DNA of 64,000 nucleotides from Candidatus Woesearchaeota archaeon (GCA_016185615.1 JACPNE010000007.1:1760-65759); one strand, 5' to 3'. Numbered from the stretch's first letter, positions 6 to 4,132 are shown. Notes: generated by a model from the sequence alone, not told the origin. Made by a program: numbers and translations.

Positions 6-33
6 ATTTCGCTTAACTGTGCTTATCTGAATT
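6..33. other. dif-like recombination site A
   Basis: ATTTCGCTTAA-CTGTGC-TTATCTGAATT; TAA-N6-TTA core with inverted arms like known Xer sites. Confidence 0.7.
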
Positions 34-38
34 CTCAG

Positions 39-55
39 TAGAATAGCTTATAAAT
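39..55 (+). promoter_or_regulatory. 17-bp element TAGAATAGCTTATAAAT (BRE/TATA-like), copy 1
   Basis: Exact copy at 910-926; contains TTATAAA about 30 nt before the ATG at 84. Confidence 0.6.
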
Positions 56-425
56 GGTCCATTTAGCCCAATTTAGAGATAAAATGAGTGAAGAATATGA
101 TAATAATTGTGATAGAATAGAGGAATTTTTGGGAACATTACCAGGGGGTTTTCAAAAAGAAATAGACTATTTAAAAAAGTTTTATGGTTTAAAAAGCCGC
201 ACAGAAGTACTTCTTGTTTCTCTTAATCTTGCGCATAAACTTGCTACTTATACTGATTCTAGTATTAAGAATTTAGAAGAGGTAACAACAGTGAATGATA
301 TTGGTGATGGAGCCATCCTAATTGGAGATAGGGATGATGAAGCCATAAAATTATTAAGAAAACTGATAGCACCGCCAAAATACGGACAAAGATTTATGAA
401 TTGGCTAGAAAAGAAATTAAGATGA
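54..425 (+). CDS. Hypothetical protein, possible ribbon-helix-helix-like segment; true start probably ATG at 84
   Basis: ORF track; EIDYLKKFYGLKSRTEVLLVSLNL resembles RHH helices (weak); TATA position favours 84. Confidence 0.6.
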   Translation: MVHLAQFRDKMSEEYDNNCDRIEEFLGTLPGGFQKEIDYLKKFYGLKSRTEVLLVSLNLAHKLATYTDSSIKNLEEVTTVNDIGDGAILIGDRDDEAIKLLRKLIAPPKYGQRFMNWLEKKLR

Positions 426-452
426 TTACACTTAACGATGATTAACCGAATA
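425..452. other. dif-like recombination site B
   Basis: ATTACACTTAA-CGATGA-TTAACCGAATA; overlaps the stop codon of the upstream ORF. Confidence 0.65.
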
Positions 453-482
453 TTTTAAATAATACCATAAAATTTAGAGATT

Positions 483-917
483 ATGAAAAACCAGTCACAG
501 TTACTAGATTTAACATTAACAGAAGAAGAGTTATTCAGAAAAAGATTAAAAGTTAAAATCCAAGATCCTTTAGGTTTTAAGACAACATTAGGACATTCTT
601 ATTCTTTAGTATTAGAATCATTAGCACAAGAGGGTTTAGATGATACACCAAACCCAGAAGAATTTATTGAATATGTTGCTTATTACGTTAAAAATAGATA
701 TGGATATTCTGAATCAAGAGAAGTAGAAAGAAGGAGATTCTTAATGCCTACATATTATCCACATATTGCAAGAGCTATTTGGAGGTATGTGGAAGGGAAA
801 GGATTGTCTGAAAAAAGAAGTAGTCAAATAATGAGAGAAGTCCTTGGACGAGAACTAACTGATTTTTCACCAAAGATAAAGTTTATGTCTACTAGTTTTA
901 CTGGCAGTATAGAATAG
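483..917 (+). CDS. Hypothetical protein (144 aa)
   Basis: ORF track; no recognisable motif. Confidence 0.7.
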   Translation: MKNQSQLLDLTLTEEELFRKRLKVKIQDPLGFKTTLGHSYSLVLESLAQEGLDDTPNPEEFIEYVAYYVKNRYGYSESREVERRRFLMPTYYPHIARAIWRYVEGKGLSEKRSSQIMREVLGRELTDFSPKIKFMSTSFTGSIE

Positions 918-926
918 CTTATAAAT
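910..926 (+). promoter_or_regulatory. 17-bp element TAGAATAGCTTATAAAT, copy 2
   Basis: Identical to 39-55; TATA about 21 nt before the ATG at 947 (leaderless-type spacing). Confidence 0.6.
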
Positions 927-946
927 ACTAAAATAAGGATAAAATT

Positions 947-1216
947 ATGAATCAAGATAAGTTTTATAGAATTGCAGGAATAGGAACAACATTGGGTGTA
1001 ATTGCTACTGGACTCTATGCTTCAATCTTTAGTTTCGATGAGAATACACAAAGTGTTGGTCAGTATTTAGTTAACTTTGGAGAAAATTTGAAATTAGTAC
1101 CGCAAAATGCACTGTTTGGTTATTTACTTGGTGGAGCTGGAGCATTATTCTTAGATAAATTGAAAAAGGTAAACTCTAAAAGAAATCATGTTCTAGAAGA
1201 TAGATTAGATGTTTAA
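947..1216 (+). CDS. Small hypothetical membrane protein
   Basis: Two hydrophobic Gly-rich segments. Confidence 0.7.
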   Translation: MNQDKFYRIAGIGTTLGVIATGLYASIFSFDENTQSVGQYLVNFGENLKLVPQNALFGYLLGGAGALFLDKLKKVNSKRNHVLEDRLDV

Positions 1217-1217
1217 G

Positions 1218-1508: not shown

Positions 1509-1545
1509 TCTTTTGTTTAAAATCCTTAATTTATAATCCTTTCTA

Positions 1546-1556
1546 TTAAGCGAAAT
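1546..1556. other. Orphan dif half-site
   Basis: TTAAGCGAAAT is the exact reverse complement of the left arm of site A; no partner arm at 6-bp spacing. Confidence 0.4.
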
Positions 1557-1598
1557 GTTTATATTAGTTCATTTGATATTTATCTTGGGGAACCTAAA

Positions 1599-1908
1599 AT
1601 GAGGGTGAGTAGAGATTTAGATCTCATTCTTCCCTAAATTAGAGGCTCTATTAAAAGAATTAGGGTATAGAAGGGATTTTGTTTTTAATAAACGAGATTT
1701 GAAACACGATGAAAATTGCTACTGTGAGCTATGTCAATTGAAAATAAGACTAAATCTATATAGTTTAATTAGCAATATAGGATACTATTATATTAACATG
1801 ATAAAATTGCCTAATTATCCAACTGAAATTAAGGAATTTTTTTATTATCTATTGAACAATAAACTAAAGAAAAGGGATAAATCAAAGAAATTAGAAACTA
1901 AAGTGTAA
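1599..1908 (+). pseudogene. Hypothetical gene interrupted by a +1 frameshift at CCC-TAA (1632-1637); joined product about 102 aa with a CxCxxC motif
   Basis: ATG1599 MRVSRDLDLILP-stop; the +1 frame is open from 1633 (PKLEALLKELGYRRD...) into track ORF 1699-1908. Confidence 0.5.
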
Positions 1909-1952
1909 TATATCACTACTATTCAATAATAATAAATAGAAAGGTTTAAAAA

Positions 1953-2870
1953 TTGAAAAAGTATACAACATATATGAAAAGGAAGTTTGAATATGCAGTT
2001 AGAACTATAGATGATGAAATTGTGAGGGATGGTCTTTCTGCCATTTCTAAATTAGATATATCTCCTTTAAGTAGGGATAACTATGCTGTTAGGGGTGGTG
2101 TTGCTGTTCAAAGTTATCTTCCAAGTTCACGTAGAAGGCCAACAACTGATATTGATACTGTTGTAGGCGACTCATTAAGAAGAAAATCTGATTTTATTAC
2201 ATTTGTTAAGCCAATAGTTGAGTATCTAAAAGACAATAAATTTTCTATAAAAACATTTAGTAAAGAAAGTAGGTCTTGGTTAATTCATGCCACTATAAAT
2301 GGAGAACTATCTAACGAAGAGATTCTCTTAAGCTTTACAAGGGATAGTAAACTAAGTTATGATAACAAAAGAAGCAGAAGGGAGAGGGAATTAGAAAATG
2401 CTAGATTAAAGACAGTTGAGTCAAGAAAAGATGTATATAGGGTTCTTTCTACTGAGGACATAATCGTTCAGAAATTCCAACGTTTATCTGAAATTTTGAA
2501 TGATTATCCAGATATTGTTAATTCTTTATCTAAATATTATGGAGAGATGTCTGATGAACTAATCAGGGAAACAATGAATAGATTAAGAGATACAAGGGAA
2601 AAATTGTTGAAGGATCCAGATAATAAAAAGTTAGATTCTACAGGAAGAGCAATATGTGATGCATATGACATTAGAATATTATTTGAAATTTCTGGAATTA
2701 ATGAACAATATTTATTAGATACATTTCCATTATGGCCTTTTGACCACATTTCAAGAGAGGTTAAAAGAGGAATTATACCAATTATTCATGGCGTAGATGG
2801 ATTAGAAAAAGTTCTTATCAGCAATAATAATCAAGAATCTTTATTTCCAAGAGCATCTAATGGAAATTAG
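1953..2870 (+). CDS. AbiEii/type IV toxin-like nucleotidyltransferase
   Basis: Motifs YAVRGGVAV, RRRPTTDIDTV, EDIIVQK, DAYDI. Confidence 0.7.
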   Translation: MKKYTTYMKRKFEYAVRTIDDEIVRDGLSAISKLDISPLSRDNYAVRGGVAVQSYLPSSRRRPTTDIDTVVGDSLRRKSDFITFVKPIVEYLKDNKFSIKTFSKESRSWLIHATINGELSNEEILLSFTRDSKLSYDNKRSRRERELENARLKTVESRKDVYRVLSTEDIIVQKFQRLSEILNDYPDIVNSLSKYYGEMSDELIRETMNRLRDTREKLLKDPDNKKLDSTGRAICDAYDIRILFEISGINEQYLLDTFPLWPFDHISREVKRGIIPIIHGVDGLEKVLISNNNQESLFPRASNGN

Positions 2871-2896
2871 TTCGTATAACAATTATTAAACGAAAT
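2869..2896. other. dif-like recombination site D
   Basis: AGTTCGTATAA-CAATTA-TTAAACGAAAT; overlaps the stop of the nucleotidyltransferase; left arm equals the reverse complement of site C right arm. Confidence 0.8.
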
Positions 2897-2922
2897 CTTT
2901 AATTATTCATTTATTATCTAAA

Positions 2923-3327
2923 ATGTTAATGGGTAGTAATGGAGATAAAGAATTAACACCAGAAGAATGTAATGATCTACATTTAGACATAATATCATAT
3001 ATTCGTTCATATAAAAAGGAAATTGCTCATCTTAATCCATTAAAAAACCCAAATTTGGAATTTGTGGCTGGTGCAATATTTGATTGTTTAATTTTTAAAC
3101 CAAGTGAAAAAATAGAGGATATGTCTTTGCATGATGCTAATTTAAACTGGCTATCTAGACTACCAGCAAAAGAGCTTTATGGATCATTAAAATTTATTGT
3201 TGAATCAAACTCAGGATATATTGGGTTGGCTAAGGAACTTATTTATGAGTTAAAACTTAAACCAAGACAAACAGAGTATGATGAATTAAGAAAAAGAGGA
3301 TCATATGCTAAAAAAACTGGAGACTGA
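2923..3327 (+). CDS. Hypothetical protein; 3' end overlaps xerA by 23 nt
   Basis: ORF track. Confidence 0.65.
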   Translation: MLMGSNGDKELTPEECNDLHLDIISYIRSYKKEIAHLNPLKNPNLEFVAGAIFDCLIFKPSEKIEDMSLHDANLNWLSRLPAKELYGSLKFIVESNSGYIGLAKELIYELKLKPRQTEYDELRKRGSYAKKTGD

Positions 3328-4132
3328 ACTAAAATTAAGGGGATTTTCTGAAAGAACAATTGGGGCTTATGTTTTACACAACAAAAAATTTTTAGAATAT
3401 ATCAAAAAAACTCCTGAAGAGGTAAATGAACAGGATATAAAAGATTATATTGGATATCTTATCTCCCAAAGCAATGCCCCAAGATCATTAGCATTAAAGA
3501 AAGCAGCCTTAAAATTTTTATATGATGAAATATTAAAGAAAGAGATAGTTAATTTCAAGACCCCAAAGATTCCAAAGAACATTCCTTCTGTGATGACAAA
3601 GGAAGAGATAAAAAAATTAATTGATTCTGCTGGAAGTTACAAAACTAAAATGATTATCAAATTTTTATATTCATCTGGACTAAGGTTGTCTGAACTAATA
3701 AGCTTGAAAATAAATGATCTGGAATTAAAAGAGAAGATGGGTTGGGTTAGGAAAGGAAAAGGCTCAAAAGACAGGATGTTTATTCTTTCTGATTCCATAG
3801 TAAAGGAATTAACAGAATATCTAACAACCCTCAATAAAGGCGAAGTTTATTTGTTTCCAGGGAGAAAGGGATTATTATCATCGAGAAATATACAGAAAAT
3901 AATTGAGAATGCAGCAAGAAGGGCAGGAATAAAAAAGAAAGTGACCCCACACAAATTAAGGCATAGCTTCGCTACTCATTTATTAGAGGCCGGGATAGAC
4001 ATAAGATATATTCAAAGTCTTTTAGGACATGCATCAATTGCAACTACTGAAATATATACCCATGTTTCTAAGGAGAAGATTAAGGCAATAAAAAATCCCC
4101 TTGATATGTTAAACGAGGACAAGAATATTTAA
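3305..4132 (+). CDS. xerA: Site-specific tyrosine recombinase, XerA/XerD type
   Basis: SGLRLSE, GKGSKDR, HKLRHSFATHLL, LGH, TTEIYTHV catalytic motifs; N-terminal SAM-like domain; GAGGA SD. Confidence 0.92.
   Translation: MLKKLETELKLRGFSERTIGAYVLHNKKFLEYIKKTPEEVNEQDIKDYIGYLISQSNAPRSLALKKAALKFLYDEILKKEIVNFKTPKIPKNIPSVMTKEEIKKLIDSAGSYKTKMIIKFLYSSGLRLSELISLKINDLELKEKMGWVRKGKGSKDRMFILSDSIVKELTEYLTTLNKGEVYLFPGRKGLLSSRNIQKIIENAARRAGIKKKVTPHKLRHSFATHLLEAGIDIRYIQSLLGHASIATTEIYTHVSKEKIKAIKNPLDMLNEDKNI

Follow-up and report, generated by a model that had tools for sequence, protein, structure and literature searches.

To our knowledge, the exploitation of Xer recombination by mobile genes is known only from Bacteria, in the form of integrative mobile elements exploiting Xer (IMEX) and of pdif modules, and the archaeal Xer/dif system is treated as a housekeeping one with a single site per chromosome. 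We describe here an array of dif-like sites lying directly upstream of xerA in a stretch of 64,000 nucleotides (the window) from a Candidatus Woesearchaeota archaeon (GCA_016185615.1, JACPNE010000007.1:1760-65759). The plasmid pdif modules are flanked by XerC/D sites, and chromosomal dif modules were reported from Acinetobacter in 2026 (PMC12907356). In the described archaeal systems there is one dif per chromosome, two copies at one locus, a candidate duplication, being noted only for S. solfataricus (Cortez et al. 2010, PMC2958812). Neither XerA-linked dif arrays nor archaeal IMEX are described in reviews of archaeal tyrosine recombinases and Xer systems or in the paper on archaeal integrons. 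A preliminary description of the window, made from the sequence alone, had stated that no chromosomal multi-dif cassette array was known from DPANN archaea; a literature search likewise found no archaeal description.

The source genome (G000) is an 8-contig assembly of 668 kb, with 30% GC and a completeness of 86%, from a Woesearchaeota-type DPANN archaeon living in groundwater. The window corresponds to positions 1760-65759 of its contig C6. The end of contig C2 and the start of C6 are taken to be contiguous because they share a 141-bp overlap, and two independent Logan contigs cross the join uninterrupted. The closest named relative, G012 (JACPNG01), is a groundwater metagenome-assembled genome (MAG) of Candidatus Woesearchaeota. 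All the evidence is comparative and comes from MAGs and metagenome contigs.

We consider it rather probable, judging from these comparisons, that XerA inserts or exchanges small gene modules at mutually incompatible dif-like sites. The sites involved, for which no strand is assigned, are as follows.

Site E, contig C6 288-315 (window -1471 to -1444, outside the window): left arm GATTTCTTTTA, spacer GACACA, right arm TTAGGCGAAAC; the left arm is degenerate.
Site A, 6-33: left arm ATTTCGCTTAA, spacer CTGTGC, right arm TTATCTGAATT; 23.1 bits, rank 3 genome-wide.
Site B, 425-452: left arm ATTACACTTAA, spacer CGATGA, right arm TTAACCGAATA; 19.0 bits, the weakest of A-D; overlaps the stop codon of the upstream open reading frame (ORF).
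Site C, 1218-1245: left arm AGTGCGTATAA, spacer CCATTC, right arm TTATACGAACT; 26.6 bits; begins 1 bp past the stop codon at 1216.
Relic half-site F, 1546-1556: right arm TTAAGCGAAAT; single-arm score 13.4 bits; the complement of the left arm of A.
Site D, 2869-2896: left arm AGTTCGTATAA, spacer CAATTA, right arm TTAAACGAAAT; 26.7 bits; the site nearest xerA and the strain-level breakpoint.

The order in G000 is E-A-B-C-D-xerA. G000 thus holds at least five dif-like sites and one relic half-site, in place of the single dif expected of a chromosome. Site E is found 1.4 kb left of the window, between a gene for a DCD-like dCTP deaminase and a module encoding ORF126 and a CPBP protease. Direct reading and parsing bear out the four 28-bp sites of 11-6-11 layout that the preliminary description had placed at A-D, as well as the features it gave for their arms (T3, C5, W8 and TAA at 9-11, with G6 in 6 of 8). 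Its remark that B, C and D touch stop codons is also correct, the ORF stops ending at 425, 1216 and 2870. The array proved larger than it had claimed, since E lies left of the window and F within it.

A position weight matrix (PWM) built from the eight arms and run over the whole genome (668 kb) returns A-D as the top four matches, at 19.0-26.7 bits; the next scores 13.7. Under leave-one-out scanning, A, C and D keep a place in the genome's top four, and B is marginal (13.9 bits, rank 5). Site B is nevertheless the second-best genome-wide match to a PWM made from A alone. When the PWM was rebuilt from the relatives, A-D were again the top four in G000. The 28-bp architecture, two inverted 11-bp arms around a 6-bp spacer, comes with an arm consensus, [AG]GTTCG[CT]ATAA, that is common to the single sites beside orthologous xerA genes.

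The wider distribution of the motif was surveyed in 81 xerA loci (938 kb) of relatives from the same order, on which the PWM was refined and for which a threshold of 14 bits was used. Above this threshold, 67 sites were detected against about 2 in shuffled sequence, a background check that had been proposed with the preliminary description. All but one of the 67 are upstream of xerA, and for 33 of them the distance to the gene is no more than 1 kb. The usual arrangement is a single dif some 86 bp ahead of the gene. Single sites and arrays were counted in the 65 loci for which 5 kb or more of upstream sequence was available: a single site is present in 27 and an array of 2-4 in 11, and in the other 27 none is detectable. 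A pattern search through the genomes of 41 relatives found the motif to be almost confined to the xerA locus.

Perfect sites of the form [AG]GTTCGYATAA-N6-TTATRCGAAC[ACT] also occur on 14 IMG/VR contigs (L123-L136, 35-53% GC), and their arms resemble the arms of bacterial XerC sites and of loxP. These contigs were considered as donors and rejected: their composition is unrelated, only two have a distant Xer-like gene adjoining the site, and they were judged to belong to other Xer/Cre-type systems.

The array ends at the recombinase gene, which is overlapped by a small ORF.

2929-3327, + strand: ORF134 (132-134 aa, all-helical); overlaps the start of xerA by 23 bp.
3305-4132, + strand: xerA, 275 aa; PF00589 (1.7e-45) and PF13495.

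XerA is the only PF00589 protein in the G000 assembly. Its best solved relatives are the XerA of P. abyssi (4a8e, 9e-50) and that of T. acidophilum (5hxy). In the alignment, the R, K, HxxR, H and Y motifs are intact (GLRxSE, GKGxKDR, HxLRHSFATH and IYTHV are visible), as expected from the preliminary description, which had recognized an intact Xer-type recombinase at this end of the array. A tree of 101 Xer proteins places the enzyme in a clade of 37 first-copy XerAs, 20 of which have a single site and 9 an array. Since the motif is almost confined to the xerA locus in the relatives and the enzyme belongs to this first-copy clade, we read the sites as dif sites of a housekeeping-type XerA; arrays have arisen repeatedly.

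An alternative is that the array is served by a different Xer-type paralogue, missing from an assembly that is 86% complete, and that XerA uses one site for chromosome dimer resolution. A second Xer-like gene is indeed present in many relatives, G012 included, and often at contig ends. However, the second copies form separate clades and have no window-type dif sites nearby, a single PF00589 gene was found in G000, and the arms of all the array sites fit the consensus of the single dif beside orthologous sole XerAs. We regard this alternative as improbable. The second paralogue was recorded in G012, G017, G024, G030, G154, G208, G211 and G217 (loci L163-L182), in well-supported clades of its own, often with its upstream side about 130-650 bp from a contig end. 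It may serve a different type of array.

The comparison of whole loci shows what changes and what is kept. From xerA rightwards, G000 is syntenic with G012, G001 and G002 at 70-80% DNA identity, and on the left the flank that the relatives conserve corresponds to C2:69638-77814. The sites are all that aligns in the interval between the two flanks. In G012 the order E-A-B-C-D and the spacers recur (D differs at one base), but the intervening ORFs are all different, in number, in size and in strand. Site E, an inverted A and site B are present in both G001 and G002, and G002 has an extra site with the spacer TACTAG; the strain contig L156 carries an inverted C, an inverted E, and D. Gene order is thus not identical among relatives, a point on which the preliminary description had hung its proposal: cargo turns over, and site order is kept in G012.

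Since XerA sites are near-symmetric, their orientation can be read from the spacer only. The B spacer is identical in G012, G001 and G002. That of A has the same orientation in G012 and is inverted in G001 and G002, and that of C is present in G012 and inverted in L156; for types A, C and E, both orientations are found among the genomes. Within a site type, spacers differ by 8.6% and arms by 22%, a comparison that is partly circular because the types are defined by the spacer. Independent evidence for the types is provided by exact 6-mers recurring across genomes. A similar pattern is seen in an independent genus (G014-G016), where the spacers GAGGGA and GCACCA are common to the genomes but the cargo shows no relationship; an additional site is present in one of them.

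A segment of 208 bp in this genus stands beside a dif-like site in G016 and, inverted, beside a different site in G015. The end of a module seems to have been inverted or relocated here.

L040 -3650 to -3443 against L039 -2931 to -2724 (relative to the xerA start), inverted: 208-bp segment, 83% identity.

Turnover is also evident at the level of strains. One XerA protein, 97% identical to that of the window, is encoded on 11 contigs from different metagenomes. All of them are alike right of D. Left of D they carry three unrelated sequences, and the window has a fourth. The change always falls on the outer boundary of the left arm, AGTTCGTATAA, which is identical throughout. The D spacer differs at its centre according to the left context, reading CAATTA, CAAGTA or CATGTA (CA[AT][GT]TA). 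From 2864 to the right, the window matches contig L137 at 95% identity; to the left the two form a mosaic in which only 1530-2155 is shared, at 85%, and the boundary at 1530 coincides with the relic arm F at 1546-1556. Two independent Logan contigs of the species of G000 begin at window position 1519; the species is present in the groundwater sequencing runs SRR12113420, SRR12113422, SRR12113424 and SRR12113433. In the strain cluster, the starts of 6 of 9 distinct contigs are at most about 340 bp to the left of D, one of the 6 starting to its right. Such clustering of contig starts is the pattern expected of an assembly graph that branches at a polymorphic site. A second strain cluster, P0010 (G001-like), showed no array polymorphism.

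The extra sites could also be the fossil scars of serial IMEX-type integrations, the second option of the preliminary description, in which plasmid-, virus- or island-like elements with a dif-like attP entered at the chromosomal dif, left behind a hybrid site with a spacer of its own each time, and then decayed, without any ongoing shuffling. Serial integration at a chromosomal dif is exemplified by CTX, TLC and RS1 in Vibrio. Several features fit such a history: foreign-looking orphan genes are flanked by sites next to the host dif and xerA, the modules contain no recombinase, relic half-sites are present, and a DDE transposase occurs in the array of one relative. Moreover, differing spacers on either side of an insert are a known result of IMEX integration by single-strand exchange (PMC5357621). 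However, searches with Pfam, PHROG and PADLOC for hallmark genes of phages, plasmids or islands found none in the window modules and, in the nine largest cargo ORFs of other arrays, none other than that transposase; replication, capsid and transfer genes were absent from both sets, and the modules measure only 0.4-3 kb. G000 and G012 agree in the five site types and in their order while all the cargo has been replaced, which inherited scars and decay would hardly produce. The replacement immediately left of D among strains indicates current activity. Scars without further exchange are on this balance an unlikely but still live account, if not as weak a one as the missing paralogue.

The mechanism that we favour, exchange by XerA, can be outlined as follows. 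The starting point would be the usual single dif just upstream of xerA, expanded in this lineage to an array of at least five sites. XerA would bind the arms common to all of them, and the six central bases would give each site its identity. Recombination between the unlike spacers of a single array is not expected, and the array would thereby stay stable; a like-spacer site carried by another DNA molecule should remain a recombination partner. Where two such exchanges take place, one slot would receive new cargo; one exchange with a circle (of 419, 793 or 1651 bp for the modules of the window) would add a module. The host XerA would thus insert, swap or invert modules, while sites and their order persist and cargo is replaced slot by slot. 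The role of XerA as the enzyme, a crossover in the spacer, and the movement of modules as circles or by double exchange are what we infer. Because each site keeps its own spacer from genome to genome and the order of the sites is fixed, slot-wise exchange is indicated in preference to insertion at a single attI. The model would account for the fixed site order combined with total replacement of cargo, and would likewise explain why breakpoints fall at site edges, why some site types are inverted and why relic half-sites exist.

Several observations weigh against exchange by XerA. The arms of B and E are weak. No site separates ORF134 from xerA, although simple insertion into a dif at -86 should leave one there. 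The assembly is incomplete to an extent that would allow a second Xer-type gene, such as G012 and many other relatives carry, to be absent from it. Because the left arms of D are identical across strains, the crossover can be placed at or within the site, not specifically inside it. Finally, modules of 0.4-1.7 kb have no known route between cells.

The preliminary description is upheld in part: the sites are genuine dif-type sites beside the sole Xer gene, and module content turns over between relatives and between strains with breakpoints at the sites. Capture or shuffling by XerA would be the further step that it proposed; its analogy with integrons is loose. A bolder version, which we put forward tentatively and hold to be possible rather than probable, sees the locus as a multi-slot platform. 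In it, a housekeeping XerA would act on slots lying between mutually incompatible dif variants shared by the population, and the cargo would be swapped by double site-specific recombination with the DNA of other cells. Such a platform would resemble a natural form of recombinase-mediated cassette exchange.

The sites divide a hypervariable island of small accessory genes into compact modules. A typical module has a TATA-like box just past a site, then 1-3 ORFs, and a stop codon touching the next site. By reading, the TATA-like box is a few bases from the site, and the ATG 22-30 bp past the box. The modules of the window contain the following features.

37-56, + strand: promoter-like box TAGAATAGCTTATAAAT, resembling a B recognition element (BRE) and TATA box; direct repeat family D19, with a second copy at 908-927; upstream of the A-B cargo gene.
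84-425, + strand: A-B cargo ORF, 113 aa; also gene-called on Logan contigs L151 and L152.
483-917, + strand: B-C cargo ORF, 144 aa, from the ORF list.
947-1216, + strand: B-C cargo ORF, 89 aa, a small membrane-like protein, from the ORF list.
1260-1508, - strand: ORF82, orphan cargo; its only database match is itself.
1699-1908, + strand: ORF69, cargo, from the ORF list.
1953/1974-2870, + strand: ORF305, a probable nucleotidyltransferase (NTase) of 298/305 aa, with weak family matches.

The repeated box is 17 nt long and is followed 28-30 bp downstream by the ATG of the A-B gene; by reading, it is a putative archaeal promoter. Most cargo is orphan, and some modules hold reverse-strand genes. 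The A-B ORF and both B-C ORFs gave no Pfam, PHROG or PADLOC match. In the 80 related xerA loci, no window cargo, these three ORFs included, has homologues except ORF305 and ORF134. Among the cargo of the strain relatives is a DEDDh exonuclease 'effector' (2e-35). The dCTP deaminase gene already mentioned is immediately left of site E, and the protease gene immediately right of it encodes a CPBP/Rce1-like protein.

ORF305 has a weak AbiEii match (PADLOC, E 6e-4), and members of its family show weak DUF6036 and NTP_transf_8 matches. A homologue search found four relatives of it. A structure model of ORF305, with a predicted local distance difference test (pLDDT) score of 56, was too poor and was not used. 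Members of the NTase family occur next to dif-like sites in G001, L122 and L156. The contexts differ: the gene is between F and D in the window, between the inverted A and B in G001, and beside D together with the DEDDh exonuclease in L156. The NTase gene of L122 (79% identical) has a D-type site after its stop codon and then the 3' end of an ORF82-like gene, which is the junction expected of a circularised or reordered C-D module. Across contexts, the NTase identities are 38-79%, and no identical module is found in two of them. Likewise, the family of a 335-aa protein (ORF335) is found before B in G002 and before D in L157.

An ORF stop codon touches 24 of the 67 surveyed sites, compared with 3.7% of random positions, and some ORFs draw their last codons and stop from the site itself. 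A TTTTAAGAAAA motif that follows several right arms was examined as a sign that arm and flank travel together; this was rejected, and the motif may be an oligo-T terminator of reverse-strand genes.

The strain contig encodes ORF134 at 92% identity and G012 at 48%. It has no family match in Pfam or PADLOC. Its predicted fold (pLDDT 69) gave no Foldseek match with E below 0.8. In G001, a different ORF takes its position overlapping xerA. It could be an accessory factor of XerA. Directly 3' of xerA, a 47-aa Lys/Arg-rich ORF (window 4179-4322), which is called as a gene, keeps its position in every close relative and every strain contig. It is followed by a regulator gene and a pair of palindromes.

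4325-4636, - strand: PadR-family regulator (PF03551, 4.4e-11), two genes 3' of xerA; synteny kept in all close relatives.
4638-4654 and 4749-4765, no strand assigned: two copies of the palindrome G[AC]TTAAAA[GC]TTTTAA[TG]C, in the intergenic region between padR and the NAD kinase gene.

A third copy of the palindrome, at C2:78642-78658, marks the left-hand limit of the variable region; in its exact form the 17-mer has just two occurrences in the genome. G012, G001 and G002 keep all three positions. The palindrome is a candidate PadR operator that would bracket the whole dif/xerA locus, and any link between the regulator and the array would come from these palindromes only.

A further alternative is that the near-symmetric dif-like sites have no part in module exchange. 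They might be regulatory or architectural sites bound by XerA, or hairpin terminators, with the dif region acting as a general hot spot of illegitimate or homologous recombination. Their position at the 3' ends of ORFs, to which they supply stop codons, the promoter-like box after each site, and the conserved, possibly PadR-binding palindrome around the locus all fit this explanation. Against it, homology between strains breaks at the edge of a site and not at random, discrete spacer types are kept across genera in a way that binding or termination would not need, and the motif is nowhere else in the genome despite hundreds of gene ends. The chances of this explanation seem slim, and exchange by XerA remains the reading that we prefer.

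Three further observations concern the genome at large. Contigs of G000 overlap by exactly 141 bp at the joins C2 to C6, C3 to C7, and C8 to C4 to the reverse complement of C5, so that fewer pieces are possible. On C2 and C6 joined, the cumulative GC skew has a broad minimum at about 75-115 kb, a range that includes the array (81 kb); the signal is weak, and gene strand dominates it. The skew declines up to the array and climbs past about 115 kb, and the genes on both sides are directed outward. Provided that gene strand follows the direction of replication, this pattern is more origin-like than terminus-like. A tRNA gene is located at window 5549-5649 (Rfam RF00005, 46.8 bits), and its span of 101 nt is consistent with the intron-containing tRNA noted earlier.

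If XerA does move modules, DPANN archaea would have a dedicated route by which accessory and defence-like genes are acquired and reshuffled. Such hosts are epibiotic, with tiny genomes and few mobile-element functions. The locus would then show in nature recombination sites that are coded by their spacers and mutually incompatible, and it would be a small, tractable test case, with an enzyme of 275 aa and sites of 28 bp. It would also explain why contigs frequently end just upstream of xerA in these organisms. Should the multi-slot version hold, DPANN archaea would possess an apparently widespread system, based on Xer, that has converged with integrons.

Compared with the canonical archaeal Xer/dif system, the array shares a XerA-family enzyme and sites of 11-6-11 layout, and in many relatives the single dif usually lies 86 bp upstream of xerA; G000 differs in having at least five sites with cargo between them.

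Integrons, including archaeal integrons and clusters of attC sites lacking integron-integrases (CALINs; Ghaly et al. 2022, PMC9668308), are like the array in that a recombinase gene adjoins compact, mostly orphan cassettes, each ending at a recombination site. A further likeness is that strain-level variation is greatest beside the recombinase-proximal site. However, the array enzyme is of XerA type, 275 aa long, without the additional domain specific to IntI: it aligns with 4a8e over residues 4-262 with no large insertion, and its match to IntI4 (2a3v) is weaker and covers residues 9-173 only. The array sites are 28-bp duplex dif sites, in contrast to attC, which forms hairpins of 57-141 nt with R''/L''/L'/R' boxes. 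The similarity between C and D extends over at most 47 nt (74% identity), and in window 1-6000 Rfam gave no family match except the tRNA. Unlike integron cassettes, the array modules appear, by reading, to have promoter-like boxes of their own, some carry reverse-strand genes, and the sites are proposed to be mutually incompatible and have a fixed order. The analogy with integrons drawn in the preliminary description is thus a loose one, having failed on both the IntI domain and attC.

IMEX resemble the array more closely, as foreign DNA without an integrase located at the host dif between dif-like sites, acquired in successive events, with non-identical spacers that stabilise the insert. The array differs from them in lacking phage, plasmid and island functions, in the size of its units (0.4-3 kb), and in having at least five sites with recurrent spacer types.

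The pdif modules, like those of the array, are small, lack a recombinase of their own and stand between 28-bp sites of 11-6-11 layout with variable spacers, the host Xer being the presumed engine. In pdif modules the same cargo is found in different contexts, whereas here it is cargo families, not identical modules, that recur. The array is archaeal and would use a single XerA on near-symmetric sites, while pdif modules use XerC/XerD half-sites. It is also chromosomal and always directly upstream of xerA at the chromosomal dif position, its site types are defined by their spacers and keep their order across genera, and its cargo is orphan or defence-like, in contrast to the resistance genes of pdif modules. 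In function, the dif and pdif modules of Acinetobacter and the IMEX are the systems closest to this array, more so than integrons.

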